NCBI GenBank assembly: GCA_963668355.1
Contig: OY764265.1
Coordinates: forward strand, 1,153,317-1,217,316
Reading direction: 5' to 3'
DNA: 64,000 nt
Source of the DNA: Bdellovibrionota bacterium
GTDB taxonomy: Bacteria; Bdellovibrionota_G; JALEGL01; DATDPG01
The notes below the pieces were generated by a model, which worked only from the letters and a program-made list of their open reading frames with translations, did not search any database and was not told the origin of the DNA. A program made the position numbers and the translations under genes. Positions 2,058 through 60,776 of this stretch are shown in pieces. Every line of letters starts with the position of its first letter. Positions within the stretch are counted from its first letter, which is position 1.

Positions 2058-2101
2058 GGATTCGATCCTCCTTCATGTTGAAGGAATGAGAAGAGATTTC
2101 T

Positions 2102-3199: not shown

Positions 3200-3230
3200 T
3201 AAATCTCGCCTTCCTTTTTTGGAGTATTAG

Positions 3231-5681
<2,451 letters not shown>

Positions 5682-5691
5682 GAGGGGCGAA

Positions 5692-13914: not shown

Positions 13915-15579
13915 TTAAAGTACGTTTTTCAAAGAAAGCAATTGTTTCGGATCATTTTCCAATTGAACCCCAACGCCCACACGGGACGAACTTTTGGGCT
14001 GAGAGTAAACCACACGACCTTTAAGTAAAATTTGTCGAAAGGTGTTTGGCAGATGAATGCGAATGAAAATCGTTTCATCATTTTCAAACGTCTTTGCAGA
14101 CTCTACGTAAAGACCGCCTTGGGAAATATTTGATTCAAACTCTTTTCGAAACTCATCCATATTTCGAAAATATAGATCCACAAAGAATCGATCAGAACTT
14201 TCTTGCGGAACCTGGCCGCATAAATCAAAAGACTCCAGCTGTGAACGAACAAAGGAATCCAAGATCTTGACATTTTCTGGTGAAATATTGGTGAACTGAA
14301 AGCCAGCAAAGGGAGAGGCGTTTCGGGAAACTTCGTAAACCAATTTACCCAACCCTGAAATGGGAGGGTGGTCTTTTCCCAAGTGAAGAACGATTCCGTA
14401 CTCTCCGCCCTCTTTTTGAGGAAGACCCTTCCACTCCACCAGCATGCCACCGCGCCCTAACTCCGCGACTGCACAAGCTCCCCGAGCTTTGTCGGAAAGA
14501 TCCACCACGTCAGCCGAAATCCCAATATGTTCTGTGGAAATGCGAGGGTGTTTGCGTTGTCCAACTTGGCCGGCCAATGATTCGACGGGGCCACTGGGAA
14601 CTTTAGGAACACGCGTTCCCGCGTTGAACTCGGAAATGGCTTGAGTCCAATTTTGATCTTTGGCAATGAGTCGTCCGACGAACGCTGGAGAAAAAAGAGA
14701 CGAAGCGTCTAAAATATTCTCCAAGGGTTTTTCGCGAAATCGAATGTGAAGCAAGGCCTCTTCAAACGCTTCAACCGTTTGAAACCGCAAGGCAGGATCT
14801 CGGTGAAGGGCCTTATTGAAGAAGATTCGAAGAGAGATCTCATCCGAACGAGAACGGACGAGATTGGAACATTCAAATTTCGGAACAGTGGCATTTCGAA
14901 CTTTGGCAATGAGATCGACTTTGTTTTCAGCTTTGAAGGGAACCGTTCCGTGGAAAAGAATAAATGCAATCACACCTAAACTATAGAGGTCCGTTACGGT
15001 GGTGAGGGGACGACCTTCTAAAATGTCGGCCGGCAAATAATGGATGCGACCAAAGGGTCGCTCCAATGGATCCGTAGAGCTTTCTTGTCCGGCGCTGCCA
15101 AAATCCGTCAGGCGAAGCAAGCCCTCTCGTGTGATCATGATGTTTTCCAAAGACAGGTCGCCATGAAACAACACAGATTGCGAATTTCGGAAAATAGAGG
15201 TGTTGTGAAGATAGCGAAGGGCGGAGCAAAGCTCCTTTATAAAATAAAGCGTGAGTGACAAGGGAGGTCGGCCGTGGTCGCGACGAAAGTCGGAAACCAT
15301 TTCGTGTAAGCTTCCCGCCAATAAAAGTTCAGAAACGGCGAAAAAAACGCCATCCACTTTTCCGTGATCCAAAATTTTCAAAATATTTGGGTGATTTAGT
15401 TTTGAGGCGATTTGGATTTCACGAATAAACGAAGCGACAATGCGAGGGACCTGGGCGCGTTCCGGTTTTAAGCATTTCACTGCAAAAGACTGATTCTCGC
15501 TCATGCCCAAATAGACATGAGACAGCCCTCCCTCCCCGATTTTGGTTAACAGTGAATATTTTCCAAGCACATTACTCAT
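13915..15579 (-). CDS. Hanks-type Ser/Thr protein kinase with C-terminal PilZ-like region
   Basis: GEGGLSHVY glycine loop, AVK lysine, HGDLSLEN catalytic loop, DFG; C-terminal 250 aa contain RxxxR-like and D-x-S-x-x-G/A-like segments suggestive of PilZ (tentative). Confidence 0.75.
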   Translation of the reverse strand: MSNVLGKYSLLTKIGEGGLSHVYLGMSENQSFAVKCLKPERAQVPRIVASFIREIQIASKLNHPNILKILDHGKVDGVFFAVSELLLAGSLHEMVSDFRRDHGRPPLSLTLYFIKELCSALRYLHNTSIFRNSQSVLFHGDLSLENIMITREGLLRLTDFGSAGQESSTDPLERPFGRIHYLPADILEGRPLTTVTDLYSLGVIAFILFHGTVPFKAENKVDLIAKVRNATVPKFECSNLVRSRSDEISLRIFFNKALHRDPALRFQTVEAFEEALLHIRFREKPLENILDASSLFSPAFVGRLIAKDQNWTQAISEFNAGTRVPKVPSGPVESLAGQVGQRKHPRISTEHIGISADVVDLSDKARGACAVAELGRGGMLVEWKGLPQKEGGEYGIVLHLGKDHPPISGLGKLVYEVSRNASPFAGFQFTNISPENVKILDSFVRSQLESFDLCGQVPQESSDRFFVDLYFRNMDEFRKEFESNISQGGLYVESAKTFENDETIFIRIHLPNTFRQILLKGRVVYSQPKSSSRVGVGVQLENDPKQLLSLKNVL

Positions 15580-26623: not shown

Positions 26624-27316
26624 TTATTTATCGTAGATCGAGCAATCGTCTCGATTCTCAATCAGAGTCATCCAATTGAAAGTATCTTTTTCAGGAGTTT
26701 CATATCGAAAGGAACACATGACGAACGTGGGATATTTCTCCTCGTCACATTGATACTCGTATTCCACGCGACCCAAAGAAATCAAATCCGCCGGCGTCGG
26801 GAAAGGGGCCTTGGAGGTGATTCGGATTTCTTTGTGAAATCGCCACACCTTGGACAGTTCACAGGTTTGCCCAGGATATTTTTCGGTCAAGAGGTCCAAC
26901 GCGATTTCCCGGCGTTCGGGCGTGTCGGATTGGGAATAAATTCCTGGAATCTGAAAATAAACACTGTTGAGAAACCAACAACGAGCTCCGGTTTCATCGT
27001 TTACGTAATACGCATCATTGGTGGTGCAGTAAAAAGGGGCGTAGACGGTTCCAAACTCTTTATCCTGGCATTGAACGGTGAACGAAAACCCATTGGGAGA
27101 GCGTCGATCTCCATGTTCTAATTCGTCCCAAACCACGGAACAATCTGACTTTCCACCCAGTGCATTGGCATAACGGCGAGCCTCTTCCGTACAAGAACGC
27201 CACTCATTTTCATATAATTGTTGATAACGATTCAGGGCCTCACTCGTTGGGCTGAAGGCCAAAAAAAGACCCCAAACCAAAAGAAAAGAACCGAATATGG
27301 TCTTGGTGCGTTTCAT
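26624..27316 (-). CDS. Exported cysteine-rich hypothetical protein (paralog A)
   Basis: Signal peptide; shares with the 27440-28186 product the blocks VYAPFYCT, SDTPERREIALDL, FPTP, YEYQC and seven aligned Cys. Confidence 0.6.
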   Translation of the reverse strand: MKRTKTIFGSFLLVWGLFLAFSPTSEALNRYQQLYENEWRSCTEEARRYANALGGKSDCSVVWDELEHGDRRSPNGFSFTVQCQDKEFGTVYAPFYCTTNDAYYVNDETGARCWFLNSVYFQIPGIYSQSDTPERREIALDLLTEKYPGQTCELSKVWRFHKEIRITSKAPFPTPADLISLGRVEYEYQCDEEKYPTFVMCSFRYETPEKDTFNWMTLIENRDDCSIYDK

Positions 27317-27439: not shown

Positions 27440-28186
27440 TTAATGGAGTTGGCAGAAATTAAAATCTTCGGTGAAGGCAAACAATTGATCTTCTTCGGTT
27501 TCTCTTGGGTTCTGAGAATTGGCCCTGATCCGATCCCCGCCCGTTTCGACGTCTAAGCTTTCTTCTTGAGATTCTTTAAAAAGGTAAAAACATCGAATGT
27601 GAATAGACTTAGGCTCGCCCTCACATTGATATTCATAATCCACATCGCCAAGCTTTTCGAGCTGAGAAGGAGTTGGGAAGGGAGGAAATTTGGAAATGCG
27701 GATTTCATAGTGGGAATAAAGAACCCGTTGGAAATGACATGCTTCATGCGGAAAATGCTGCTCAACCAAATCAAGGGCCAATTCACGACGTTCCGGCGTG
27801 TCCGAAGGCCAGTACACACCGCTAAGAAAGAAGCGTCCCGCTCCGCCAATCCAGCAGTGGGCCTTTTTTTCTTCCTGAAAGCTGAAATTTTTCTCGGCTG
27901 TGCAAAAGATGGGTGCGTAGACATCTCCATAAGAATCATCCATGCACTGAACGGTGAACCACATGCCACGCTTAGATGAGTTCAGCAAATACTCGGATTG
28001 ATCCCAGACGATTTTACAATGGGATAAGCGGTCAAAGGAGTTCGAAAAATGCAAAGCCTCGTCCCGATAGATCCCTCTCAAGGCGGAGAGATCAAGCTGG
28101 GCGGGCTCAGCCAAAACCGAAAGCGCGAAGGTCCATAGGCCGACGAAGAGAAAAAGGACCGCAGGTCTGGAGAAAGACAGTTTCAT
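27440..28186 (-). CDS. Exported cysteine-rich hypothetical protein (paralog B)
   Basis: Signal peptide; same conserved blocks as paralog A; acidic C-terminal extension. Confidence 0.6.
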   Translation of the reverse strand: MKLSFSRPAVLFLFVGLWTFALSVLAEPAQLDLSALRGIYRDEALHFSNSFDRLSHCKIVWDQSEYLLNSSKRGMWFTVQCMDDSYGDVYAPIFCTAEKNFSFQEEKKAHCWIGGAGRFFLSGVYWPSDTPERRELALDLVEQHFPHEACHFQRVLYSHYEIRISKFPPFPTPSQLEKLGDVDYEYQCEGEPKSIHIRCFYLFKESQEESLDVETGGDRIRANSQNPRETEEDQLFAFTEDFNFCQLH

Positions 28187-28322: not shown

Positions 28323-28348
28323 TTAAGAATTCATTTATAAGTTCTTAA
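28323..28348. promoter_or_regulatory. Candidate operator palindrome in a divergent promoter region
   Basis: TTAAGAA (28323-28329) N12 TTCTTAA (28342-28348) in the AT-rich interval between divergent genes. Confidence 0.2.
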
Positions 28349-28387: not shown

Positions 28388-29488
28388 ATGTCGAAGGGGG
28401 ACTCTAAAAAAATTCTACTTACACTCTTTGGAGTGGCTTGTCTCTATCCGCTTTCCGCCTCTGCAAATCTTTACACTCAGCTTCGCGATACGGTTGTTCC
28501 TCAAGCCAAAGTGGTTCCGGCCGTTCAAAGCGAAATCGGTCGAACGGCTCGGCAGTTAACAGCCATTTCAAACCGATATGAGGCTGCCGGAATTTTTCCC
28601 CATGACATGGGCGATGTTTTCAAAAATGCTTTCGCAGGTGGGCGCATTCAAGGACATCAACCCAAATTTTCCCAAGCGTTTAGTCGATACGGAAAGTCCA
28701 TCGGCTTTGAAACTTCAAATGGGTTTTCCTTTTTGGTTCCCTCTTTTGAACGAAGGGGAACGCTCCCGTTTGAAAAATGTGAAAATGGCCCCTCCCTCTC
28801 CGATCTTTTGATGCATGTAGCTCAAATTGAGACAGGGGATGCGAAGGCCGAACTCGAGGAAATTCACTTTGTCCACACGCCTGAAATGTCTGCATCTACC
28901 GCAAGCATTCTGTACGCCGCTGAATATTGTTCTTCGGATCGTTTGGTTTATGCAAGTGCAAATGGCGAAATGAAAGACTTGGTCGAGCGGGTGCGAAGAG
29001 TCATGGGAAGAAATCCCAAGCGGCCCCTTGGAAATGAAGCCGTCATCCCAGAGCGCCTAATCTCGGCGCTTGAAAGTGTGTATCAGTTGCAAGAGATACA
29101 GGTTCCTGATCTCGAAACCTACGACCGATTTTCCGGCTTCGACTTTTCCGAGAGTGGCACCATGCAGGACGTTGTGGATATGGCCATGGATTATCTAGAG
29201 GAAGTGAGCCGTTTGCTGGAAGAGGTGAGTTCTCCCTCTATGGATGCTTCTCGCAGTTATCGAAAAACGAGGACGTATTTAGAAATCGTCGCTCCGGCCA
29301 TGTTGACGACGATTGAGTCCAAGTATCGAACCTTGTTATCGATTCGAAATCCTGAAATCGCCCCCAGCGTGCAAAAATTTCGAAAATTTCGCCAGAAACA
29401 TAATCGTCTCATGGATCATCTCACGGAACATCGCCGTGTTCAGTGGAATGACTTTCTGCGTGGCGTTTCCCTCCACCCCCAAGGGTAA
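28388..29488 (+). CDS. Exported hypothetical protein
   Basis: 366 aa; signal peptide ILLTLFGVACLYPLSASA; no recognisable domain. Confidence 0.55.
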   Translation: MSKGDSKKILLTLFGVACLYPLSASANLYTQLRDTVVPQAKVVPAVQSEIGRTARQLTAISNRYEAAGIFPHDMGDVFKNAFAGGRIQGHQPKFSQAFSRYGKSIGFETSNGFSFLVPSFERRGTLPFEKCENGPSLSDLLMHVAQIETGDAKAELEEIHFVHTPEMSASTASILYAAEYCSSDRLVYASANGEMKDLVERVRRVMGRNPKRPLGNEAVIPERLISALESVYQLQEIQVPDLETYDRFSGFDFSESGTMQDVVDMAMDYLEEVSRLLEEVSSPSMDASRSYRKTRTYLEIVAPAMLTTIESKYRTLLSIRNPEIAPSVQKFRKFRQKHNRLMDHLTEHRRVQWNDFLRGVSLHPQG

Positions 29489-29518
29489 AAAGAGCATAAA
29501 TATTAGGTTGTTGTAAAA

Positions 29519-32500
29519 ATGAAACGGGTCGTAAAGGAGAGGTTGGCTTTTATGACGCAGTGTGGTAAACCGCGCTCGAATCAAGGGACTATGCTAAGGG
29601 TGAGGTTTAAAAAGATAATTCTATTTTTTGTGGTGGTCTTGGGACTGCCTTGCTTGGCCGTGGCCAGTCAGGCCCCCAAATCCATTCCGGATGAAGGTCG
29701 CCTTACGAAAGAAATTTCCATTGAACGCTTCAACGGAGCGACGAAAGTCGTCATTGCTCCGGATTTATTACGAAAATGGGACGGAAAACTCACGGAGGAC
29801 AGCAAACTCGTCTTGGCGGAGGTCCTTATTTATCGGAAGCGAACCGTACAAATCCTTCTCGAAGCCCTGGATCGCCTACGATTCTTGGCCTTAGCCTTGG
29901 GAGAAACCGCATACCAAGACCCTTCCTTAGCCATGCCGGACGATTTGGCCATGGTCCTAGACCGCGCGTTTGATCCACGTCAATTTGGTGATCTCATGGG
30001 AGGCGTCGGTTGGCTCCGTAATCCGCTTGCCCAAGGCGCGGAGTTTGATCCCGTGGTCATGGATGCATTTTGGCGAGATATTCTGGAGCGGTCTATCGGA
30101 GTGGTCCATCGAGAATCACAAAAAGCCTTTTACGAACGCTACCGCGGAGTGGATGAGGTCATTGATGAGTCGGTGAGCTTGGAGGAAAACCTAGGTGAGT
30201 ATTGTCGCCGCACGCGCGATGAAATCGATCAATCCAAGGCGGTCTCACAATCCATCGAAGCGAGAAACCAAGAGGCCAGGACGCTGCTCTATGACATCGA
30301 TGGAAATGCCTACGAAGGAGAGCGACTTCTTTTTACGCCCCTTCATTATGGCAAGACCTTTCTTCCCAATGAAATTTATCGCGAGAAGGTTCGCCCCATT
30401 CTTCGGGACATCAATACGCTTCGACAATACCCGGGCAAGGGTCGAGATGATGGCTACTTGGCCAACTTCTTTGTCGCGTTGGCCCTCAATGAATTGTCGG
30501 AGAAGCATGGTTTCGATATACGCCTGGCGACGGAGAGTCAGCCGCGCTCCAGTTTGATCTGTGCGGCGTGGGATGAAATTCCCTTTGATCAACTCGACGA
30601 CGAATTTTTTGTCCGAAATTCGGAGCATTTTCGGACAGCTTTTCTGGCGGCAATTCAAGAGGCCATCCGCCTGCATCAACATGTATTGGTGTACTTATTG
30701 GATTTACATGCGCCTTCCCGCTTTGGCGGCGTCGTCTCGTTTGCTCAATCCGTTACCCGGACCATCAGTCGCGTGTTTAAAAACGACTACCTGCCTTACC
30801 CAGACAACCCCCTCGACATTATCCAAAAACTCTCCGTTCTGGCTGCCATCTTCCAGGGGGCACCCGATCTCATGGAAGAAGTCAGGGCCGAGAATCCAAT
30901 GGATAAAGTCTCCTGGGAAAATTTGCAGAACTGTCTCCGAGAGGAATTTGAGCAATACCAAGTTCGCTTGGAGGGTGATGAACGTCTCAAAGCGTTTAAC
31001 TCGATTGGTTATGTGGGCATGGCCGCCACCATGGTTACCCGGTCTTGGATTCCCACGATTATCATGGTTGTGAATGATGCCTTCATTACGTTTACGATCA
31101 CACGTCCTCGAATGCACTATCGGCAGAATTTGACGAAGTTGTATCAGTCCATGTTTTTGAATGTTGACCCCCAATGGGTCCTGGCCAACGAAGCAAAAAT
31201 AAAACTGGATGTGCATGACCACGCGGACAAACTTCGCGACTTGGTCGTTTTAGACGCTCAAGCGTCCCAAGAATTTCGAAATGCCTGTGGCTGGATGCTG
31301 GGGTTCGGAACGTTCTGGGCCTTTCGAGGCATCAAATGGTTCAATGGCATGTGGCGCTGGGTTCAGGGTGCCGTCAGTCCGGAAAAATATATTGTGAGTT
31401 CGGGATCCAATATGTTCGAACTTCGCAAGGAAGTCATGCGCACGGTCAAAGCCATCTATCAACTTTTTGATGAAAAAATGCTTGTGGACGGAAAGGGCCG
31501 GCGAATTGAAGTCATTGGGGCTTTTCGTAAACAAGGCTGGTGGAAAGAGGTTTGGGAAAGAGCCTATTCTTTCATACCCAATGATCTCACGATCATTCAA
31601 CGCGAGTTTCCTCAAGTCTATCGAAGGTTAGCCCGAGAGTTTAGAAAACTTCACTTACATATAGAGAATCCGGAAGACATCACAAAGTTTTTGGCCCACC
31701 ACGAAAAGGGAGAAGGGTTTTCCCTTTGGTCCCTGGCACAAGAACTCAAATTGGCTAGCCGTGCGGATATCGAAGATTGGGCACGTCGCATGGATAGCTC
31801 GGACGTGGAAGATTTCATCCAACATGCGGGCCAACGTGTGGAAGGAAGAGTTCGCTTCAATCAACTTCACAAACTTCGGATTCGTCGCGAGGGATTTCGA
31901 ATAAAAATCGAGGCGCCCAGAATGCCTGCGCCACCTCTTCAGCCGGCATCCACGGCACAGCAGGCACGGAACAGTCAAAATGTTTTGGCAACGCTCAACG
32001 AAAGATACCAGGTCGCACGCAGACAATTGGCAGCGGACCTTAAAGGTCTCAAAGTTTATGCAGAAGCGGAAGATGATGTCGTCGGGCGCGCGGGAGAATA
32101 TCATTTTAAGAAAAAAGAGATTCAACATGTTCACAATATTCAAAAGACACTTCGGGATTTAGAACACTTATTGGATCCGGTTACCCGCCATAGAGATCGA
32201 AGCGCCCCTGGGGTGGAGCGCACAGCAAAACTTCTCCTTGCCATTGGTAGACCCTTTGAAAAACCCGTTCATGCCAGCCAAGAATTTGTATTTCAAGCCG
32301 TTAGAACCATGTCCGCTTGGATCGGCGTTTATCTTGACCTCAGCCTCGCCATGCGCATGAAGCGCATGATCCCTCCAGGAGCACTTTCTCAAGTGATGAG
32401 AAATGCCATTGCGCAAAAAGTTGAGCGTGTGCCGGGGCTACGACCGTTTGCCGATGCTGTACGCAAAGGAAAGGATTGGATCACCGTAGGCAAAGATGGA

Positions 32501-33415
32501 ATCGCGAGTGGAATCGCCAAGGCCGATGACGTGGCCGAGGAGTTCGCTCGAAAAAAATGGAAACTCAATATTGATGAAAGTTTTGTTTCTACATTTATTG
32601 GAGACAGCGTCATTCTCGGATTGATCACCGGATTTGTGGGTGATCGCCTGTATCGTATGGGAGAAGTAACGTGGCAAAACCGAAGCGATGGGTATGGGGC
32701 GGCACTAAGTGAAGGTGCGGATGCTTTGCTCGTTAATCCCTTCAATTTGGGGGATGCTCACGAGGGGGAAGAGACGAGAATCAACCTTGTTACGGGCATG
32801 GTGCGTCGTGCGTACACCACGTTTTTCATGACTTCGGCCTTAAGTTTTCGAAAGAAAATGATGTGGGTCAACCTGGGTGGCGCCGCAGTTGAAGGCCTCA
32901 CCACCGCCGCGACCAACCTCTACGGTCTTACACATGGCGATGACGCCCTTGACTTCGAGGATGCCCTGGCAACATTGGTTTCACCCGAATGTCTCATCGC
33001 CATCGCCAAGCGCTTAAACCTTGGGTACATCTACAACAACTTCTACGCCCTGTGGCATAAGCAAGCCTATTGGAAAGTCCGACACGCCATGCGCAGTCCC
33101 ATGATGAATCGTTCGATGTACGACGTGTTTGTACTTCGTCTGGGCTGGTCAACCGTCTTAGGCAAGGCAGGATTCACCGGTGCAACTCATTTGTTTGATG
33201 CGCCAGGGGAATGCGCTCCGGTGGACCACCCGTTTGAAGAACTTTCGGTCAAGGGTAACGACCCTCGCATGAGCTTTGCGTTCCAACAAACCGCAGACGA
33301 ATTGGATGCTTTGACGATCAACGATTGGATGGATTTGCAAGAAGAACTCGAAGCCGAAGGCGTAGAAATTGATGAAACATTGGGCATGGAAGAGTTTGAG
33401 GGAGACGTCGAATGA
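29519..33415 (+). CDS. Large exported hypothetical protein (1298 aa)
   Basis: N-terminal hydrophobic signal/anchor (IILFFVVVLGLPCLAVA, likely start near 29591); Gly/Ala-rich hydrophobic segments near C-terminus; acidic tail; no known catalytic motif found. Confidence 0.6.
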   Translation: MKRVVKERLAFMTQCGKPRSNQGTMLRVRFKKIILFFVVVLGLPCLAVASQAPKSIPDEGRLTKEISIERFNGATKVVIAPDLLRKWDGKLTEDSKLVLAEVLIYRKRTVQILLEALDRLRFLALALGETAYQDPSLAMPDDLAMVLDRAFDPRQFGDLMGGVGWLRNPLAQGAEFDPVVMDAFWRDILERSIGVVHRESQKAFYERYRGVDEVIDESVSLEENLGEYCRRTRDEIDQSKAVSQSIEARNQEARTLLYDIDGNAYEGERLLFTPLHYGKTFLPNEIYREKVRPILRDINTLRQYPGKGRDDGYLANFFVALALNELSEKHGFDIRLATESQPRSSLICAAWDEIPFDQLDDEFFVRNSEHFRTAFLAAIQEAIRLHQHVLVYLLDLHAPSRFGGVVSFAQSVTRTISRVFKNDYLPYPDNPLDIIQKLSVLAAIFQGAPDLMEEVRAENPMDKVSWENLQNCLREEFEQYQVRLEGDERLKAFNSIGYVGMAATMVTRSWIPTIIMVVNDAFITFTITRPRMHYRQNLTKLYQSMFLNVDPQWVLANEAKIKLDVHDHADKLRDLVVLDAQASQEFRNACGWMLGFGTFWAFRGIKWFNGMWRWVQGAVSPEKYIVSSGSNMFELRKEVMRTVKAIYQLFDEKMLVDGKGRRIEVIGAFRKQGWWKEVWERAYSFIPNDLTIIQREFPQVYRRLAREFRKLHLHIENPEDITKFLAHHEKGEGFSLWSLAQELKLASRADIEDWARRMDSSDVEDFIQHAGQRVEGRVRFNQLHKLRIRREGFRIKIEAPRMPAPPLQPASTAQQARNSQNVLATLNERYQVARRQLAADLKGLKVYAEAEDDVVGRAGEYHFKKKEIQHVHNIQKTLRDLEHLLDPVTRHRDRSAPGVERTAKLLLAIGRPFEKPVHASQEFVFQAVRTMSAWIGVYLDLSLAMRMKRMIPPGALSQVMRNAIAQKVERVPGLRPFADAVRKGKDWITVGKDGIASGIAKADDVAEEFARKKWKLNIDESFVSTFIGDSVILGLITGFVGDRLYRMGEVTWQNRSDGYGAALSEGADALLVNPFNLGDAHEGEETRINLVTGMVRRAYTTFFMTSALSFRKKMMWVNLGGAAVEGLTTAATNLYGLTHGDDALDFEDALATLVSPECLIAIAKRLNLGYIYNNFYALWHKQAYWKVRHAMRSPMMNRSMYDVFVLRLGWSTVLGKAGFTGATHLFDAPGECAPVDHPFEELSVKGNDPRMSFAFQQTADELDALTINDWMDLQEELEAEGVEIDETLGMEEFEGDVE

Positions 33416-35925
33416 AATATCTTAAACTCACCTTGATCGTGGTTTCCGTTCTTATTGGATGTACCTATGTCCAGAGTGTTGATGCACGCCCTCGTGCAAA
33501 TCGTCAAACGGAAGCCGAAAAAGTCGGAGGTCTTTATCCCCTTACCCCCGAACTTCGTAGCCAGATCTCCACACTCATTGGCATGGCTAGATTTGGTTTG
33601 GGATATAAAAACACAGCCATTCATACTTCGGTCACGAACCCTGCCACGAATCCGTCCTACTACAATGATCTTCTTTATGGCGCCGTACACGCAGGAAGCG
33701 CTGTGCGCGTGCCCAACCGCATCAAAGAGCCCACGCTCTATCATATCAACCATCTCCGACAGGATCTGGGTGCCGAGTATGAGTTGCTGTATTGGAGCGA
33801 AGAAGCGCGCAAGCTTGGCTTCATCACCTCCGTGCGAATGTTAAAGGAATCAGAGGAATATCTTTGGGCGTCGAAGGCCGATCAGCAAGCCATGGAACTG
33901 AACTTAGCCAATCAATATGCCGTTTCTACGGTTCCCAGAGTCACTGAAGCTTTGGAAGAGGTGCGGAAGACAGCTCGCTACGCGGAAGCGGTTGAACGCG
34001 ACGATAAAGGCAGAATCGCTCAATTGGAACTTTGGACGCGTATCAATGCTCTGTATGCGATTTTGCAAGAAACCCGAGCCTATCAAAAAGCACCCAGCTG
34101 GAAGCAGAAAGCCATGGAAGAATTGATTCTGGCCAAAGAGCGCCAAGGTCTCATGAGTGCTTTCCTTCACTTTCGCATTCCCATGTTTCAAATTCCGGTG
34201 GACGGTCTTTCCTCGAATGAAATCGAGGAACTTCTCTTGGAAATGAATCAGGCTTTTCCAGAACACCACCCCTATGTGTTTGAGGTGAAGGATGGTGTGT
34301 TTCAAGGTTGGTTAGATTTAACCGAGCTTTTGCTCATGCGTTCGATGCTGTATCGCACGCGTCTTCCTTGGGAAGACAACACGCTCTCGGAAACATCCGA
34401 TCTCCCGGTGCTGGACCAAATCGCTTTGGGATCGACCCTCACGCACCAAGCGGTCCACATGACCGCGCCCATTCTACAGAATTGGGCGCAAGGTGTGGTC
34501 GCAACGACAACGGCAGCGGACCTTGCGGCATACGAAGGAGCGAGCAGCGCCATTCAATTTTTGGGAGATCGCTATCGTGAAATGCCTCTGCGAGCGCGCA
34601 CTGGAATGTTGGCGCGGACCCTGGTTCCCCGCTTGCCAATATTGAAAGGGCTCTATCTGGAGAATGCGGAGTGGGCCAAGATTGCGGCGGCCATATTTAC
34701 TCGCGCGCAGAAAGAAAGCACGAAAGCCGCGGCGGGGTTTGTTACCACCAAACTCAAGGCCCTGGGAGGCGTAGCCTTACGAAATTCAGCCCTTTTTGGT
34801 CTGGCACTGGTAATTGCGATAGATGCCTATCAGGTCTACCGCGCCGGCCAAGACGCTGGCTCGCCTCAAATGCAAGCCGAGGCGTTTGGAAACTTAGCCG
34901 TTCATTTGGCTGAAGGATTTGGGGCAAGCATGCTCATCAAGGCTTTAGCGGGCGCGGAAATGGTTCAAGTTACGGCAGGTATGGGTTTGGCCCAAGCAAC
35001 GGGTGCGATGCTCACGGCCGCCCTCACCAATCCCGTAACCTGGATCATTGTTCTGGGAATTGTCGCGACGGAAGTGATTCAGCGAAACTGGTATCCGGAC
35101 ATGATTACAATTGGCGTGGTTCGTCAATATGGACAGGCCTTTTTTGCCGATATGTGGAGAACCGTAGCGGACGACTTAATTCGCAGCAAAATCTGCGGAC
35201 GAAACCTTGTGATGGAGCAGTGGCAAAAGAAAGTATGTCTTAAGAAAGAGGAAGGCGGAGATTGGGAGCCTCGCACGTTTTCCTTTTTGGATTATCGCGT
35301 TCCACCTCAGGCCTTCATGGAAATGAACCCAGAGCAGCAGCGAGAAAACCGACGGCTGTATGTCTTGGACTTGGACCATTTTGAGGGATCCGTGGAAGAA
35401 ATCCTTACCTATCCTCCCATTGATCGAGCGGAAGCCTTAGACACTTTAGTAAAGGGCTATGCCGTGGCCTATTTAGAGCGGATGTTTTTCACGCTTCAAT
35501 TCCTAGGAGATGTCAACGTGAACCACTTTAAAGGACTCTTCGAAGAGATTGGTTTGTTGGCTTCGTCTGCTTCAATCGTTCCGGTCGATTTTGAGACGCA
35601 TGTGGCCAAATACGAGACGAAGGACCGCCTAGAAGTAAGAAGCGCGCTGCAGACCGAGCTGGAAGAGTTTGTGGGGCGCGCCGAGGGGCTCGAAAAAGAG
35701 TACGGTCGAAACCTTGTCTTCGGGTCGATTTCCGATGATATGATGCGGCGTTTGACTGGCTTGACGGATGAAGCAATTCTTGTTTTAGAGAACTGCTTTG
35801 ACCTCGAAGGCGAAGATGGGGAAATGCGTGCACGAAAACCTTGTATTCCCACGCCAATTGAGGAAAAAGCCTTGGAAGCTTTGTACGAACAAAGAGATCA
35901 AACAGAGCGGCACTGGTTGAAATAA
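33412..35925 (+). CDS. Large hypothetical lipoprotein (837 aa) with central Gly/Ala-rich hydrophobic helices
   Basis: Lipobox-like LIGC signal; ATGA overlap with upstream gene; central segments (GFGASMLIKALAGA, AGMGLAQATGAMLTAALT) resemble glycine-zipper membrane helices. Confidence 0.6.
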   Translation: MKYLKLTLIVVSVLIGCTYVQSVDARPRANRQTEAEKVGGLYPLTPELRSQISTLIGMARFGLGYKNTAIHTSVTNPATNPSYYNDLLYGAVHAGSAVRVPNRIKEPTLYHINHLRQDLGAEYELLYWSEEARKLGFITSVRMLKESEEYLWASKADQQAMELNLANQYAVSTVPRVTEALEEVRKTARYAEAVERDDKGRIAQLELWTRINALYAILQETRAYQKAPSWKQKAMEELILAKERQGLMSAFLHFRIPMFQIPVDGLSSNEIEELLLEMNQAFPEHHPYVFEVKDGVFQGWLDLTELLLMRSMLYRTRLPWEDNTLSETSDLPVLDQIALGSTLTHQAVHMTAPILQNWAQGVVATTTAADLAAYEGASSAIQFLGDRYREMPLRARTGMLARTLVPRLPILKGLYLENAEWAKIAAAIFTRAQKESTKAAAGFVTTKLKALGGVALRNSALFGLALVIAIDAYQVYRAGQDAGSPQMQAEAFGNLAVHLAEGFGASMLIKALAGAEMVQVTAGMGLAQATGAMLTAALTNPVTWIIVLGIVATEVIQRNWYPDMITIGVVRQYGQAFFADMWRTVADDLIRSKICGRNLVMEQWQKKVCLKKEEGGDWEPRTFSFLDYRVPPQAFMEMNPEQQRENRRLYVLDLDHFEGSVEEILTYPPIDRAEALDTLVKGYAVAYLERMFFTLQFLGDVNVNHFKGLFEEIGLLASSASIVPVDFETHVAKYETKDRLEVRSALQTELEEFVGRAEGLEKEYGRNLVFGSISDDMMRRLTGLTDEAILVLENCFDLEGEDGEMRARKPCIPTPIEEKALEALYEQRDQTERHWLK

Positions 35926-35957: not shown

Positions 35958-37013
35958 ATGAGTCTCCCGGTTACGATCACTAATCTTACGAAGCGTTTTA
36001 ATGACCATGTGGCGGTAAATGATATCTCGTTAACCATTCCTCAAGGCCAGTTATTCTTTTTATTGGGACCTTCGGGATGTGGAAAAACCACGCTTCTTCG
36101 ATCGGTGGCAGGCTTTGCCAAACCCGAAGAAGGAACCATTCACTTCGGAGACAAAGACATCACGAATGTCGCTCCCCACAAACGAAATTGCGGATTCGTT
36201 TTTCAAAACTATGCACTTTGGCCGCATATGACGGTTTTTGACAATGTAGCCTATGGATTAAATGTCCGAAAAATGACCAAGGCCGATGTTCAGGAGAAAG
36301 TCCAATTGGCTCTTAAAATGGTGCGATTGGAAACGTTGTGTGATCGAAAACCCACGCAGCTTTCGGGAGGCCAACAACAGCGCGTCGCACTCGCGAGAGC
36401 GTTAGTGATTACGCCGGACGTTCTGTTATTGGATGAACCGTTGAGCAATTTGGATGCAAAACTTCGATTGGAAATGCGAGATGAAATTCGTCGGATTCAT
36501 TCGGAAACAGGAATTACGACCATCTACGTCACGCATGAACAAAAGGAAGCCTTAAGTTTGGCTCAGCAAGTGGCCATCATGAATTTGGGAAAGATCGAAC
36601 AGCTCGGAGCCCCTAAGGATTTATACTTCAATCCAGCCAATGAGTTTGTCGCCAACTTCATTGGTGAAACAAATATGCTCAAGGGATCGCTCGAAGATTC
36701 AAAGCATGTGTGCCTGCCCTTTGGAACGTTGGAGGTCCCCATTTTTTCCGGCCCCACGGAACAGGATGTAAAAGTTTCTGTACGCCCTGAATCCGTACGG
36801 ATTCACTCCTCCAAGAAAGAGGGGAAAAATATTTTTTCCGCCACGGTTGAAAATGCCATCTATCTGGGTGAACACGAACAAGTTTGCTTGAATCTTTCGG
36901 ACGGAACGTCGCTAAAAGTCCTTGCGTATGATCCCGGAGGAAACACGCATCATGAAGGTGAATCCGTCTGGCTTGAGATTCCTTCGACCTCTGTTCGGGT
37001 TTTTGCCTCGTGA
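35958..37013 (+). CDS. ABC transporter ATP-binding protein (PotA/FbpC-type importer ATPase)
   Basis: Walker A GPSGCGKTT, ABC signature LSGGQQQRVALARA, Walker B LLLDEP, C-terminal regulatory domain. Confidence 0.9.
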   Translation: MSLPVTITNLTKRFNDHVAVNDISLTIPQGQLFFLLGPSGCGKTTLLRSVAGFAKPEEGTIHFGDKDITNVAPHKRNCGFVFQNYALWPHMTVFDNVAYGLNVRKMTKADVQEKVQLALKMVRLETLCDRKPTQLSGGQQQRVALARALVITPDVLLLDEPLSNLDAKLRLEMRDEIRRIHSETGITTIYVTHEQKEALSLAQQVAIMNLGKIEQLGAPKDLYFNPANEFVANFIGETNMLKGSLEDSKHVCLPFGTLEVPIFSGPTEQDVKVSVRPESVRIHSSKKEGKNIFSATVENAIYLGEHEQVCLNLSDGTSLKVLAYDPGGNTHHEGESVWLEIPSTSVRVFAS

Positions 37014-40287: not shown

Positions 40288-43200
40288 TTGGCGGGGAAGT
40301 TTCGTATGAAGACCAGAGATCTGTTGACCAAGGTGTTGTTTTCTTTCCTTTTTGGGCTTTTGGCTTTTTCAGGACAAAGCTTTGCCCAACCGGTATGGCC
40401 ACATTATTTTCAAAATCTTCACCCGAAGGTTTCCTCCACCGAAACCCAATATCTTCTGAGAGAGTTTGCCGATGAATGTGCGGCCCTGGACGTTCTCGGC
40501 TCTCAGCGCTACATCAGTTGGCAAAATCGCGGGACCTCAAGAAAAGATCGAGCGTTGGAGGAAGAATTCGATCAAGCTTTTGAAGAGCTCAAACAATTGA
40601 GTTTTGACATCGTTGATCGCCTGGAGCCCTCCGAACTTTTTCTTTTGCTTCAACAATTTCCGTCTCTGGCCTCGCGCTTGGGAATTCCACAATACGCACA
40701 CAATTTGGTTTCGATGGTCAGCATCGGGAGACCCAAGTTCGGAATTGGCGAACTGGAAAAATTCGTTCGCCATCGCACGCTCGTGCGCTTTCTGGAATTT
40801 TCGGAGGAGGAAGATCCCGAATTTGTCGCGTGGCTCTTAGAGATGTTGATCAAGGCGGAGGCCCATTGGGAGTTGTATGGGAATCTTCTAGCGCGAATGG
40901 ATGCTCTTGAAAGTCAGCGGCAGTACTTGGGCTATACGAACGATGAAAAAATAGACGAATTGAGAAGACACACCGAGTTTTATCAAAAGGCAAAGCCTCA
41001 ATTGGCTAGAGAAATTTTGGAATTGAAAAGGGCGACCGATCATCCCCGTTATGAAGCGTGGTTGAATTTGGCGCAAACCTATTTAGATGAATCTCCGGAC
41101 CTTCCGCAAAACATCGGTGAAGGTTTTGGTCTCCCTTTCTATTATGGTTTTCGTTCGGGCTTAGACAGTCTGGCCAGCGTCTTCCATCGTTTTGTTCTGA
41201 AAGATCCAAAGAAAGCCAGTGAAGCGACACATAATGCCGTCAAGTGGCACGAGCGCGCGTTTGCCAGCTCTCATTATTCTGGACTTCGTATGGACCGGCT
41301 TTTAAAGGGCGCAACCTTCCGTCCCGAAAACAGCCCCACTTTAGTTGGCGCAGGGGCCTCTGAAACTTTTTTGGGCGTTTTTGCTTGGCTGGGAACCGCA
41401 AGCGGTCACATCATGGAAGGGGATATCGGACAAGGGGCCAAGGTTCTTTTCATTGATTTTGCCGATGGGCTGTTTTCGTTGGCGGCGGCGCGCGACGACT
41501 TTGTCGAAGACTGGGCCGAGGTCGCTCAAATGCGATTGCAGGCGCAACTCATTGAGGATGAAACGATTCGTCAAGAAAAGATCATTCAAGCCGGCCAAAT
41601 GGCCTTGGCCAATCGACAAAACGGATATTTCAATCCCCATTATTCCGCGCCTTATGCCATCGGTGCGGTGATGGGAGCCAAAAAGGCATTTCGTTTGATG
41701 GTGGTTCCAATTCGATATCTTCGCTCTTTAAATCCTCGGATTCAGGAAGCCCAAGCCCGAGCAGGGCTGGAAACTTCTTCACGAGGAGGTCAGGGTTTTG
41801 AATGGAAACCCTTAGACGAACAGTCTCGAATACAAGTAGAAAGCCTCATTGAAAGTCTCCGAAAATCTGAAAATGCGGAATTGCAGGCCTTGATCCAAAA
41901 TGTGGAAAAAGGCGAACCTCCAGCCGGTCTATTTCCGGATGAAGGCGGAAGCGCAGCTCCTTCTCTTTCGCCACGCCGAGGAAGTGGCGGAGGTGGACCC
42001 GCAACGCTCGTCGAGTCTCGTCCCACGACGGGCTCACAAACTTCCACATCAACCTCTGTGGGTCAAAGCGCACGCACCCTTCAGCCATCACAGCCCTCTC
42101 CCTCCCAAGGGCCGGTCGCCCAGATTCAAACTCCGACGCAAATCGCTCAAGGTCTCGTCGTCGGAAATGTTGAACTCTTACATGCGAATGAAAATGAAGG
42201 TGAGGAAACCAGCGGGGAGGAAAGCTCATCGGAATTCATTGAACGTTTAACGCGCGAAGTTCGTGAATTACAGAAGCGATTGTTCGATTTCATTCCAGCT
42301 CTGGCTGAAACATTCGGCAGCTTTGAAAACTGGGTTCTGAAAGGCATGCCCCTACCTAGAGAAAGCGAGTTGCATGTTCGAGAAATTCGTCGCTCGATTC
42401 AATTGCCACCTCCTTCTCCCGAGACTATTCCCGATCAACTCATCTTCAACTCGCCAGAATATTTTCGTTGGCTTTTTACAGCCGTCGAAGCCTTAGACAA
42501 AGCCGAGCAAGAAGCTCTAACCGACGCGCTTCAAGGGCTAAACCTCATGACGGAGAGGGGCGGAGATGTCGCGTCCGACGCCACGCGCTTAAGTCAAATT
42601 TTTCAGGGTGTTTCAACCCTCAACTTAAGCGACTTTGATGGAACTCGTTCGCGCCTAGAAGATTTGGGAGAAGCGCGCAATACAGAAGTCGATCAACGCG
42701 CGGAAGAACTCCATGAACTGGAAGCCAACTTGGGCCTACATACGGTAAAAGTTTCGGGAAGACCGCTGGTTTGGCCGGAAATAGGATTGCTTGGTAGTTC
42801 TCAGGCCTCTCCACCACTCGCCATTGGAGAAGCCGGAGCGGCCATGGCTATTGATGGTGTGCCCTCGGAAGAATATCAAGGCTTCATTGATCAGCGTTCA
42901 GGTTTCAATCGTAGTGAACTCGATTTACAAATTCGCATTTTACTCTCGGCCATGGTGTTGCACGGCGAGTTTTTGGAAGCCTGGCGGCCTCAAGCTCAAA
43001 ACGGAGTGACACACAAAATTGCCTATGACGTTAAGCTCAAAGATGACAGCGACGGCGAAACGATTTTAAAACTTCAATTATGGCTTCAGGAAGTCGTAGG
43101 TGAGCGTGCCAAAGTTGTGCAAAGCCATTTCATTGAAGCTGAAAATGTAGGCCATAAAAATGTTTATCGCATTGACATCGTTCCGGGGGATAAAGCCGAC

Positions 43201-53613: not shown

Positions 53614-55050
53614 CTAAAAACGTAAGCTTGTTGTCAAAAAGATTTCGTGGAGTTGGATTTTTGCGTCTAGGTCGTTGGTTTCGGTTTCTTGGCGAAACGC
53701 ATACTGAAGGGCGCAAGAGAGGTTTCGGATCGGGTAGTAAAACGCATGGGCTCGGAGCGACCACTCTTTCTCCGTGGTTCGAGGTGCGGATGTAGGAGAA
53801 AGGTCTTGCCAGGCGTCACGCTCATTGCCTTCGAGGGTTCCTCCCATCTCCAGGCGAAACTCCCCATCTCGGAAATTTCTTCCCATCAAAAGATCTATGC
53901 CCGTGTTGAATCCACGATAATTGTCGATGAGGTCCGCTTGAATTCGTAGATCAAAATCGGAATCAAAGAGTTGGGGGTCACGATAGCCTACGGTGTATTT
54001 GATTTGGTTTTGGTCATCAAAGGTGCGTTTCATGTATTGGATGGCGCCAAAGACATAATTGCGATCAAAAATCCGAAACATGATCTGATCTCGAACACCA
54101 TAGTAGTACGCGTCAGTGACTTGAGCCCCTCCCAATAACGTGGAGTTAAAGAGGGGATCGCTGGAAGGAAGAATGGTCGAGAGATTTGAGGCATCAAACT
54201 GAAGAACGCGCCACAAGTTGAGGGAAAGCGTGTTGGTGAAGCTGGGTTGAGGTCGGGTAATCACCGATAATTGACCCAGTCGAAAGGCTGCGACTCCAGC
54301 AACATCTGCTTCCACCAAGCCAGAAAGACTCCATCGCGCATTGAAGTCGTAGGTACCTTGAGCAAATGCGGTCATGCGATCCAAACTCTTCTTGAACCAT
54401 TGGGCGTGAAGCGCGACATCTCCTCGAAAAGCGTTTCCTCGATACGAAGCATACACACCTGAAGTGAGGTAATCCAAAGAGAAGGGCTCACTCCGATACG
54501 CGCTTCCCAAGTAGCCAACTTGATTTCTCAAGTCATTGGCGAATCCGCCGAATAAACCAAGGCTCACACGATTGGAAGAGTGATAGACCAAACGAAGGCC
54601 ATCTACGCGAGCCCCTCCGGCTTCATACATGCGTTGGCGTCCCACCCATAAATCCAGTGATTTTGCGATGGAGGGAAGCTCCAAGCTGGCTTCGTAAAGT
54701 TGGTGCCGCCCCGCATTCGAAAATGAAAAGGTGGAATTTTTTTCTCCAATATTGAAATAGCTTCGTCCTTTGAAATGAAAAGTGCCGTCCTGTGAAGCAT
54801 TTTCACCAAAGAGTTTGGAAATTTTGGTTCGAAGGCCCAGCGAGAAAAGGCTGTACTGATCTTGAATATAATTGTTTCCGTAAAGATCGTCGGCCTGGAA
54901 GTTGGCTTGGCTCGAGACATTGTTTCGTAGATGCCAAAAACCCATATCCACATTGCCTTTGAATTCGGCCGCGTGAAGAGGAGCATGCGCGGCAAAAAGG
55001 AGCGCCCCTCCCAACAGGCCCAGAGCTCGAAGGGTTCCCCGTTTCTTCAT
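53614..55050 (-). CDS. Outer-membrane beta-barrel protein (porin-like), third gene of cytochrome operon
   Basis: Signal peptide LRALGLLGGALLFAAHAPLHA; alternating amphipathic beta-strand pattern; C-terminal ...TSLRF aromatic terminus; ATGA start/stop overlap with the cytochrome gene. Confidence 0.7.
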   Translation of the reverse strand: MKKRGTLRALGLLGGALLFAAHAPLHAAEFKGNVDMGFWHLRNNVSSQANFQADDLYGNNYIQDQYSLFSLGLRTKISKLFGENASQDGTFHFKGRSYFNIGEKNSTFSFSNAGRHQLYEASLELPSIAKSLDLWVGRQRMYEAGGARVDGLRLVYHSSNRVSLGLFGGFANDLRNQVGYLGSAYRSEPFSLDYLTSGVYASYRGNAFRGDVALHAQWFKKSLDRMTAFAQGTYDFNARWSLSGLVEADVAGVAAFRLGQLSVITRPQPSFTNTLSLNLWRVLQFDASNLSTILPSSDPLFNSTLLGGAQVTDAYYYGVRDQIMFRIFDRNYVFGAIQYMKRTFDDQNQIKYTVGYRDPQLFDSDFDLRIQADLIDNYRGFNTGIDLLMGRNFRDGEFRLEMGGTLEGNERDAWQDLSPTSAPRTTEKEWSLRAHAFYYPIRNLSCALQYAFRQETETNDLDAKIQLHEIFLTTSLRF

Positions 55051-57128
55051 GGTTTTGCCGGCCTCCATCCAAATGTGAAGTGGCAGGTTTCACAGGTGAT
55101 GGGTGCGCCCACATGACCGGTGATCGTGGCATCGAAGTCCTTGGCATGACAGAAGTGACAATCTTGCGGTAAGCCGCCAAAAATTCGATTGGCATGACAT
55201 TGGTTGCAATCCAAGAAGCGGTGGGCTCCCGAGAGGTCAAAGCCCGTTTGGGAGTGTCGGAAGGTGGTGGGGAGCCAAGCTTGTTGGTTGTGACATTGCC
55301 AACACGTTCGCCCAAAGGAATTCATATGGGGGTCGAGATGGCAAGCCGCGCAGTCCGTTCGGGAGGTGCGAACGTTTTCCGTGGCATTGTGGCAGGCCGT
55401 GCAATCCATTTGATCATGAACTCCACCCAACGAAAATTCGCCAAAATCATGAAAGCCTCCTTTTCGAACGGAGAAGCCTTCAAAGACATGACAACGCTCA
55501 CAATTGGTTCCAAACGTTCCATCATGAACATCCCGGTGACAAGACGAGCATTCGCTGGATTCAAACTTGTATTGATAATCTTTATGGCATTGATTGCAGG
55601 CCAGCTTTCGATGTTGTCCTCTTAAGTTAAACCTGGAACCTCGCTCATGATCGAATTCGATGTCGTTGAAGGCAATGGGCGCATGGCATCGCATGCATTC
55701 AATTCCAAGTTCTCCCTTGTGGAAGTCCGTGTGGCAATTTTGGCAAAGGGTGTCGATGCCGGCATAGCGGCCATTCGAGTGACAATCCGCACAGGGTACG
55801 TTTTGGTGTTTTCCAACCAACGGAAAACGGGATTGCCGATTGTGGTCGAAGGTCAGGTTTTTAAATGCAGAGAACGTATGACAGGATGCACAGGTTTTCT
55901 TTCCAAATTGTCCTTTATGTACATCGATGTGACAGTAGGAGCAGTCCGGATTTTGATTAAGCCAGCGATACTTGGCGTCTGCATGACATTGGCCACAGGG
56001 AACGACCTTATGTTTTCCTTCGAGTTTGAACCGCGCATCTTTTTCATGGTTGAACTTCAAGAACTTCCAGCCGTCTTCAATATGGCAGCTCTTGCAAGTT
56101 TTCTTTTCGGTCCAGAGAATTTCGAATTGATTTCCATGGGGGTTATTGTGACAGCCGCTGCATTGAGAAAAGTTTTTCATTTTTCCAATGACAGGGCCGT
56201 GACACCTCACGCACGTCACATAGTTATGTTCGCCTCGTAAAGGAAAGGCAGTTTTACTGTGGTCAAACTCACCCTTTCCTTTAGGGGTGATCGCTCGCCA
56301 AGAACGCGTGTGATGACATTTCTTGCAATCTTTTCCCAGCTTTCCCTTGTGGGGATCTACGTGGCAATTGCTACATCGTTTGAACGGGGTGGGTTTCCAG
56401 AGTTTGTTTTTGTGACACGCGTAACAATCGACCGGTTTATGTTTCCCGGTGAGAGGATATTTCGTGTCTCTATCGTGATCAAACGGGAGCCGGGCTAAAA
56501 TGGGGGACCATTTCGAAGTGTTGTGACATTTTTCACATAAGGTGAACGATTGGGTTTTGGACTTATGAATGTCCTCGTGACAAGACGCACATTTAGAGGG
56601 GGTGTTGATGTAAGTTCGTGTGTTGGTTTTACGGCCGGTTTTTACATGGCGGCGTTTGGCTTTGTGGCAGTCCTCACATTGCGCAGTGACGTGTGCACCA
56701 TCCAACGGCCAGTCGGTTTCGTCGTGATGAAAGGAAAGGCGCGTTAAACCCATCAAATCATAATCCAAGCCTTTGTGATCACTGTGGCATTCGATGCAGG
56801 TTCCTTCAACACGCGCATGGTATCCCTTGTCCTTGGAAACCAGAGAGGCGATTTCGGTATGGCAGTCGAGGCATTTTTGGTCAGGGACACCTTTTGCGGT
56901 GGCGTGGCAATCGGTACACTTGCTCAAGCCTTCCAGCTCTTGGTGGGCTTTGGCCAAAGGACCGGGATTTAGAAGCCCTCCGAAGTCAAGCTGGGCCCTT
57001 GCCGGTGACGCTGTCGCCAGAAATCCAAAAATGGCCGCAATGATTATGTGTCCCCGAAATCTCAAAAACATCCCCAAGTGAACTAAAACGATACCCGGAA
57101 TCGTCCAATTGGCGAAATTTTCAATCAC
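55047..57128 (-). CDS. Multiheme cytochrome c with 27 CxxCH motifs (about nine triheme c7-like repeats)
   Basis: 27 CxxCH motifs counted in the translation; signal peptide MFLRFRGHIIIAAIFGFLATASPARA (alternative start near 57071); recurrent FDH / GxH distal-His spacing. Confidence 0.9.
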   Translation of the reverse strand: MIENFANWTIPGIVLVHLGMFLRFRGHIIIAAIFGFLATASPARAQLDFGGLLNPGPLAKAHQELEGLSKCTDCHATAKGVPDQKCLDCHTEIASLVSKDKGYHARVEGTCIECHSDHKGLDYDLMGLTRLSFHHDETDWPLDGAHVTAQCEDCHKAKRRHVKTGRKTNTRTYINTPSKCASCHEDIHKSKTQSFTLCEKCHNTSKWSPILARLPFDHDRDTKYPLTGKHKPVDCYACHKNKLWKPTPFKRCSNCHVDPHKGKLGKDCKKCHHTRSWRAITPKGKGEFDHSKTAFPLRGEHNYVTCVRCHGPVIGKMKNFSQCSGCHNNPHGNQFEILWTEKKTCKSCHIEDGWKFLKFNHEKDARFKLEGKHKVVPCGQCHADAKYRWLNQNPDCSYCHIDVHKGQFGKKTCASCHTFSAFKNLTFDHNRQSRFPLVGKHQNVPCADCHSNGRYAGIDTLCQNCHTDFHKGELGIECMRCHAPIAFNDIEFDHERGSRFNLRGQHRKLACNQCHKDYQYKFESSECSSCHRDVHDGTFGTNCERCHVFEGFSVRKGGFHDFGEFSLGGVHDQMDCTACHNATENVRTSRTDCAACHLDPHMNSFGRTCWQCHNQQAWLPTTFRHSQTGFDLSGAHRFLDCNQCHANRIFGGLPQDCHFCHAKDFDATITGHVGAPITCETCHFTFGWRPAKP

Positions 57129-59966: not shown

Positions 59967-59983
59967 GCTAGAAGGAGAAGGAC

Positions 59984-60769: not shown

Positions 60770-60776
60770 GAGGACG

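Follow-up and report, generated by a model that had tools for sequence, protein, structure and literature searches.

Among described systems, TssM/IcmF of the type VI secretion system is a polytopic scaffold protein of the inner membrane, of about 1100-1300 amino acids, in which a few transmembrane helices part the cytoplasmic portion from large helical periplasmic domains, and it is encoded in an operon together with smaller periplasmic or lipoprotein partners. The ClyA-family toxins are another point of comparison: AhlB is about 36 kDa in size, and the hydrophobic head of AhlB and AhlC, through which they interact with the membrane, is made up of two adjacent helices (PMC6602965). The locus analyzed here, referred to as the A-B-C module, consists of three consecutive plus-strand genes (A, B and C) in a 64,000-nucleotide stretch of contig OY764265.1 from a Bdellovibrionota bacterium; the whole of this stretch is called the window.

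B resembles TssM/IcmF in size class, in having domains predicted to be separated by transmembrane helices, and in the presence of smaller operon partners. However, B has no Pfam or NCBIfam match, lacks an NTPase motif and carries a cleavable signal peptide, and there are no other secretion-system genes near the module. The ClyA-family tripartite toxins (AhlABC, SmhABC, NheABC, Hbl and MakABE) share with the module a set of three co-encoded, mainly alpha-helical proteins and two adjacent Gly/Ala hydrophobic helices (PMC6602965), which here are found at residues 491-532 of B and 491-562 of C. They differ from it in that no similarity in sequence or profile could be detected (Pfam, PDB), in that the components of the module have 366, 1298 and 837 amino acids, and in that B has further hydrophobic helices with a positive-inside pattern that would indicate the inner membrane of the producer. 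A further difference is that the module is chromosomal, syntenic and apparently vertically inherited.

By the search evidence, A, B and C are new protein families, and no striking mechanism emerges from the analysis. The explanation that we tentatively prefer, and that falls a little short of being probable, is that B and C may form an integral inner-membrane complex with A as a periplasmic accessory, restricted to one lineage and inherited vertically. This reading is drawn from the protein sequences and their conservation.

Searches, relatives and conservation of the module

No match to A, B, C or two paralogous proteins encoded upstream of them was obtained in Pfam or NCBIfam, and a Pfam search with all of the family members gave no match at E ≤ 1. 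The same proteins had no match in PADLOC and only noise in PHROGs (E > 0.03), and a phage or anti-phage defence system was rejected on these grounds. PDB sequence searches with single sequences and with family profiles gave no match, and the comparison of AlphaFold2 models to the PDB with Foldseek gave no match with E < 0.5. These models were unusable, with a mean predicted local distance difference test score (pLDDT) of 37.8 for C alone and 36.8 for residues 58-1257 of B, modelled from a 5-sequence alignment; at this low confidence, both proteins appeared almost wholly helical (DSSP for B). An initial annotation of the window, made by a model from the letters and the open reading frames (ORFs), had named homology to an AsmA- or Lpt-type family as the result that would speak against its proposal of a novel exported system. 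Such homology was looked for and not found: AsmA/TamB/Lpt-like proteins were rejected because Pfam and NCBIfam gave no match and because the low-confidence models are almost all-alpha, not a long beta-rich groove. As nothing similar could be found among described families and systems, the module is new at the protein-family level.

A word-indexed search of 5.8 billion clusters, made with B, C and the B alignment, gave nothing for C and, beyond B itself, nothing for the others. An exhaustive HMMER search of 1.84 billion representatives yielded four relatives of B, which are P0008 (1280 amino acids), P0009 (1225 amino acids), P0010 (1243 amino acids) and P0011 (a 203-amino-acid fragment); P0007 was rejected as a homologue of B, being a repeat artefact. 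The full-length relatives can be aligned collinearly with B, at 22-23% identity, over a stretch that begins with the signal peptide and includes the C-terminal domain, and the four full-length B proteins are only about 22-36% identical to one another. The order A-B-C is kept on the contigs of the relatives, L081 (GCA_964397255.1), L084 (GCA_043804515.1, JAZDIZ010000148.1) and L085. With the module defined as a small exported protein, a protein of ~1250 amino acids and an overlapping protein of ~570-840 amino acids, each homologous across genomes, it is present in four genomes including that of the window. The homologues have 338-368 (A), 1225-1315 (B) and 672-766 (C) amino acids when longer ORFs are used for L084.

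Homology of the smaller proteins was assessed separately. With C of L081 as the query, C of L084 was matched at E 1e-40, that of the window at 1e-12 and 2.5e-9, and that of L085 at 4e-4. The A proteins of L081 and L084 matched each other at E 2e-33; the window A scored 11.2 bits against the profile of these two, compared to a shuffle maximum of 4.2 (n=500), and A of L085 scored 6.3 bits against the A profile, compared to a shuffle maximum of 2.6. In L084 (8807-15539), the deposited calls of all three module genes look 5'-truncated, and longer ORFs restore the signal peptides as well as the N-terminal motif of C. The longer C ORF of L084 (from 13521) overlaps the 3' end of B by ~320 nucleotides, and its B has a long non-conserved tail, which suggests a frameshift or an assembly error in this metagenome-assembled genome. 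Once the L084 calls are extended, signal sequences are found in all of the module homologues. A scan of the genome contig collection with B gave no relative, two metagenome scans gave no further relatives, and tblastn searches of plasmids and phages gave no relatives of the module. The sole taxonomic label obtained for any relative was 'Pseudomonadota bacterium'.

The coordinates and lengths of the three plus-strand ORFs (Table 1) were exact in the initial annotation, and the ATGA overlap of the last two genes is present where it had been placed. ORFs this long cannot be due to chance at a G+C content of 48-50%. For B, a start at 29552 (M12) or 29591 (M25) is likelier than the first codon of the longest ORF (29519). 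A GAGGGAG ribosome-binding site ends 7 bases before the B-C overlap of the window; the corresponding junction is TTGA in L081 and an 8-nucleotide overlap in L085. The three proteins are mutually unrelated by BLAST and hhalign. The description of the genes as an operon-like unit that encodes exported proteins with no recognisable domain also stands.

The chromosomal block that holds the module is partly syntenic and is close to the replication origin, with dnaN, recF, gyrB and gyrA at 924-8160. The flanking genes common to the window, L081 and L084 are those for PBP1a, a radical SAM protein, carboxylase subunits, methylmalonyl-CoA mutase, and a multihaem cytochrome with its neighbour. Among these three loci the module proteins are 19-30% identical, versus 40-72% for neighbouring genes, and the G+C content of the A-B-C region (0.48-0.51) is like that of the rest of the window. 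Because of the partial synteny, the average G+C content and the lack of plasmid or phage relatives, the sequences point to a module that has been inherited vertically while diverging fast.

Predicted anatomy and topology of A, B and C

Table 1. Coordinates of the module, its features and adjacent elements in the window
Feature	Position	Strand	Remarks
Imperfect palindrome	28323..28348	.	TTAAGAATTCAT/ATAAGTTCTTAA; 12-nt arms, 83% complementary; ~40 nt 5' of gene A, divergent intergenic region
Gene A	28388..29488	+	366 aa; exported accessory protein; family membership by profile score vs shuffles
Degenerate zincin-like motif of A	28802..28816	+	D139-L-L-M-H143; aligned with HEILH (L081), HEIEH (L084)
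Gene B	29519..33415	+	Longest ORF 1298 aa; large core protein of the module; homologues P0008-P0011, collinear alignment
B signal peptide	29591..29665	+	Residues 25-49, MLRVRFKKIILFFVVVLGLPCLAVA followed by SQ; equivalents in P0009, P0010, P0011 and the extended L084 ORF
B N-terminal domain	29690..30988	+	Residues 58-490; net -21; predicted periplasmic; most invariant residues here
B Gly/Ala-rich hydrophobic helical hairpin	30989..31114	+	Residues 491-532; conserved; G500, D520, A521 invariant
B hydrophobic helix H3	31271..31354	+	Residues 585-612; flanks acidic upstream, basic downstream in 4/4 homologues
B middle region	31355..32569	+	Residues 613-1017; helical, variable, basic; predicted cytoplasmic
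B hydrophobic helix H4	32570..32644	+	Residues 1018-1042; K/R-rich flank before; bracketed by invariant D1019 and D1042-R1043
B conserved C-terminal domain	32645..33268	+	Residues 1043-1250; Cys1158 and Cys1232 invariant; predicted periplasmic
B-C ATGA stop/start overlap	33412..33415	+	Translational coupling
Gene C	33412..35925	+	837 aa; partner of B
GGLYP stretch of C	33526..33540	+	Start of mature C; residues 39-43; G40-L41-Y42 invariant; Pro43 in 3/4
C Gly/Ala-rich hydrophobic block	34732..35097	+	Residues 441-562; helices 491-562 conserved; G514, G531 invariant
C conserved C-terminal domain	35098..35691	+	Residues 563-760; acidic in 3/4 members
ABC importer ATPase	35958-37013		Then binding protein, permease; directly downstream of C

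The initial annotation had given all three proteins signal or lipoprotein signal sequences. A, B and C do each start with a basic n-region and then have a hydrophobic h-region, but a lipobox is found only in C. In A, the signal peptide comprises residues 1-26 (cleavage between SASA and NL), and its GVAC sequence does not match the lipobox consensus [LVI][ASTVI][GAS]C. In C, the signal peptide comprises residues 1-22, and the window protein has the sequence LIGC (Cys17), which fits the consensus and makes this copy a predicted lipoprotein. In the remaining three C proteins the signal is of the SPase-I type and has no Cys; the lipobox is unique to this genome, and the lipoprotein nature that had been assigned to C is hence not a trait of the family.

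Conserved charge features are distributed along the whole of B. The N-terminal domain has a net charge of -1 to -21 in all four B proteins, and three homologues have its Cys229/Cys348 pair, both members of which the fourth has lost. The flank before H3 is acidic in 4/4 proteins (0-3 K/R and 3-4 D/E), and the flank after it is basic, with 3-4 K/R and with no D/E in the three relatives and 3 in the window B. The middle region has 366-405 amino acids and a net charge of +20 in the window and +7 to +22 in the homologues, and in the window B it contains no Cys at all. It is followed by a K/R-rich flank before H4 (5-10 K/R with 6-8 D/E, 4/4). For C, the net charge of the hydrophobic block is +9 to +12 in 3/4 members, and the domains on either side of it are mostly acidic. 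As predicted from these sequences, the charge layout of B (4/4) and C (3/4) follows the positive-inside rule, as is characteristic of integral proteins of the inner membrane.

Hydrophobicity was assessed using a simplified Hessa sum that was calibrated on proteins of the same window. For internal helices in B and C it gives values of about 0.5-7 kcal/mol, and true transmembrane helices of the same genome mostly have values of ≤2.5. Segments of ≤6 kcal/mol are several times commoner in B and C than in soluble controls (about 0.6 per 1000 amino acids), and the hydrophobic helices of both proteins fall at conserved alignment positions. The hydrophobic segments that had been reported near the C-terminus of B were found at residues 1018-1042 and 1087-1132; beyond these, B also has the conserved hairpin at 491-532 and the helix at 585-612. 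The central Gly/Ala-rich hydrophobic block that had been described in C is likewise present (about residues 361-560). Its last helix has at its end a Glu residue (Glu555) that is identical in 4/4 aligned sequences. The invariant residues of the C-terminal domain of C are T566, R583, W604, A684, L695, G699, L715, R739, L746 and E749.

In contrast to these features, the near-MACPF string YGLTHG that had been noted in B was not borne out. The string is found at residues 1135-1140 of the window B and in no homologue. A MACPF-like B was rejected because YGLTHG misfits the [YW]G[TS]H[FY] part of the MACPF/CDC signature [YW]G[TS]H[FY]...GG, because Pfam gave no MACPF match, and because the string is absent at the aligned site in 3/3 full-length homologues. 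The region was modelled as helical, with low confidence.

In the family alignment of A, Cys181 is invariant, and the second Cys of the L081 and L084 proteins lies 3 columns from Cys131 of the window. The Cys patterns of A and B suggest disulfides, and thus oxidising extracytoplasmic domains. The best-conserved block of the A family contains IAHEIxHxxQ in L081 and L084. The window A, with DLLMH (that is, DLxxH), has neither the catalytic Glu nor the first His of this motif, so that the HExxH expected of a zincin metallopeptidase was not found in it; A of L085 likewise lacks HExxH. The L081 segment gave sub-threshold scores against PF13699 (13 bits with a curated cut-off of 22, E 0.12) and PF13203 (11.9 bits with a curated cut-off of 23.2, E 0.17). 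The likeness to PF13699 (eCIS_core, formerly DUF4157) and to PF13203 (DUF2201_N) is at the level of the motif only, through the HExxH of the L081 and L084 proteins; the scores are far under the curated cut-offs, and the window and L085 proteins do not have the motif. If the ancestor was a zincin, the window A would be catalytically dead, judging by its residues. The initial annotation had found no catalytic motif in the module; HExxH and Walker A are indeed absent from A, B and C, but one trivial GxSxG is present in A (GKSIG, residue 102), which is not conserved.

A possible inner-membrane complex and the other readings

Drawn from the observed genes, signals, gene order, overlap, cysteines and charge, the preferred topology, a physical B-C(-A) complex and any activity of it would be as follows. 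All three proteins would be exported by Sec. After cleavage of its signal peptide, B would have an acidic, disulfide-containing periplasmic N-domain of about 430 amino acids, followed by a Gly/Ala-rich hairpin with an invariant Asp that would dip into the membrane, and by a third helix that would cross to the cytoplasm. Next would come a domain of ~400 amino acids in the cytoplasm, basic and helical, and then a fourth helix that leads to the conserved periplasmic C-domain with its invariant Cys pair. C would be synthesised in step with B via the start/stop overlap; Gly-rich helices of its own would anchor it in the same membrane, and it would have two domains in the periplasm. A would be a small periplasmic accessory of zincin-like descent, which in two relatives has kept an intact HExxH and here has a dead one (DLxxH). 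Such a complex may act as a scaffold, a sensor or a transducer across the inner membrane.

Several observations weigh against an inner-membrane B-C complex. The internal helices of B and C are only marginally hydrophobic, and the translocon might not retain them; the block of the window C has no net positive charge; a lipobox, as found in this C, is unusual for a polytopic membrane protein; and the basic middle region of B could have a cause other than a cytoplasmic location. There is no usable three-dimensional model, given the pLDDT values of both proteins, and the conservation statistics are thin with only four full-length members. The first of these points also bears on a rather unlikely reading, in which all three proteins are soluble in the periplasm or are associated with the outer envelope in a structural or adhesive role, their hydrophobic helices are buried core, and the window C is only lipid-tethered. 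The segments do score as intermediate, and the soluble control methylmalonyl-CoA mutase also has a segment of 1.9 kcal/mol; the canonical LIGC lipobox of the window C and the cleavable-looking signals and Cys pairs in all three proteins would fit such a reading as well. However, it does not account for low-energy segments that are several-fold commoner than in the soluble controls and that lie at conserved positions, nor for an invariant Asp inside a hydrophobic helix of B, nor for the charge asymmetry around H3 and H4, which is kept in four B proteins as divergent as these. The lipobox, moreover, is missing from the three other C proteins.

The initial annotation had favoured pore-forming or prey-directed factors. 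What remains of this proposal is that the Gly/Ala-rich hydrophobic helices are present and the proteins are predicted to be membrane-associated through them; it is weakened by the positive-inside charge, by the synteny and average G+C content, and by the lack of plasmid or phage relatives. In its full form, B and C would be secreted alpha-helical pore-formers that insert into a target membrane, for example that of a prey or a competitor, by analogy with the ClyA-family tripartite toxins, and A would serve in processing or as an accessory; we consider this unlikely. The three co-oriented genes for helical exported proteins are compatible with it, as is the Gly/Ala-rich helix-loop-helix of B and C, which is comparable to the hydrophobic head of AhlB/AhlC (PMC6602965). 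The marginal hydrophobicity would let the helices escape stop-transfer during Sec export, the fast divergence relative to the neighbouring genes (19-30% vs 40-72%) is common for proteins at conflict interfaces, and HExxH is found in A homologues. Against it, there is no sequence or profile link to any pore-forming toxin family; the two proteins, at 92 and 145 kDa, are much larger than the ClyA-family components of roughly 36 kDa; the conserved positive-inside pattern would have no rationale in a secreted toxin; and no immunity or secretion-system gene is conserved beside the module in the three related loci. The syntenic chromosomal site, the average G+C content and the lack of plasmid or phage copies oppose a mobile toxin, and the MACPF-like string is not conserved. 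A more elaborate variant of the inner-membrane complex is quite improbable: in this variant, D520 of B would be an ion-binding site in an envelope machine of unknown type, with ion flow or a cytoplasmic signal coupled through the basic ~400-amino-acid domain to periplasmic work, and with a zincin-type A in some lineages; there is no homology to Mot/Tol/Exb stators or to known secretion or transport systems. A functional tie of A, B and C to the downstream ABC (ATP-binding cassette) importer, for example in substrate capture or processing, is less probable still. Only 32 nucleotides separate C from the ATPase gene, with no terminator-like site predicted between them, and a similar importer adjoins the module in L081. 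That importer, however, is encoded on the opposite strand, flanks the module on its other side and is only 24-44% identical, and no importer is found around the module in L084 and L085. Readings beyond those listed here are given an equally small place.

Genomic surroundings and meaning of the module

The palindrome in the divergent intergenic region upstream of gene A could, from its sequence, be a candidate operator or regulator binding site. On the other side of this region, divergent from gene A, are two tandem paralogues (26624-27316 and 27440-28186, both on the minus strand; 39% identity, E 5e-46) that encode small exported proteins with 8-9 Cys each. They have no library family match and are singletons among 15 billion proteins. 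As partners of the module they were rejected, being missing around it in the three related loci.

The multihaem cytochrome c gene and a gene for a 470-515-amino-acid protein without a Pfam match form a pair that is kept in 3 genomes (window 53614-57128, minus strand; L081 17426-20973; L084 17121-20644). The cytochromes are 57-59% identical and the partner proteins about 40%, and the pair lies 1.6-3 kb from the module in L081 and L084 and 18 kb from it in the window. In L081, a two-gene insertion (2390-3461) separates the genes for biotin carboxylase and carboxyltransferase, which lie next to each other in the window; its first gene (2390-2821) is small, has no Pfam match and is possibly an antitoxin gene, and its second (2793-3461) has an AbiEii toxin domain.

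Other genes of the window have unusual domain arrangements. A 2083-amino-acid ORF (40288-46539, plus strand) has a GT4 glycosyltransferase domain only at ~1240-1590, with more than 1200 N-terminal residues without a Pfam match, and it is convergent with a gene (46536-48647, minus strand) in which a paralogous GT4 domain is fused to a PRK/zeta-toxin-like P-loop kinase domain. A Ser/Thr protein kinase with a C-terminal PilZ (cyclic di-GMP-binding) domain is encoded at 13915-15579 (minus strand). At 59244-62534 (plus strand), genes for an ABC-2 ATPase, a permease and an ABC_transp_aux protein with DUF7088 are found together, an arrangement that resembles the GldA/GldF/GldG genes of gliding bacteria.

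In terms of the source organism, the best matches of the neighbouring carboxyltransferase in GTDB representatives are at ≤71% identity and are spread over many phyla. In a collection of 15 billion proteins clustered at 90% identity, every housekeeping protein that was looked up and was present (GyrA, GyrB, carboxyltransferase, MCM, TatC, PBP1a and others) is a singleton. The organism is without a close sequenced relative, and its lineage is barely sampled.

The labels 'MACPF-like' and 'lipoprotein pore-former' have been removed from the module as unsupported. The exhaustive HMMER search, combined with gene context, turned what were three 'orphans' of the word-indexed search into a conserved module, which, in a deep and barely sampled lineage, is a defined target for further study. 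If the complex is real, three protein families and one conserved operon would be added to the envelope systems of bacteria.

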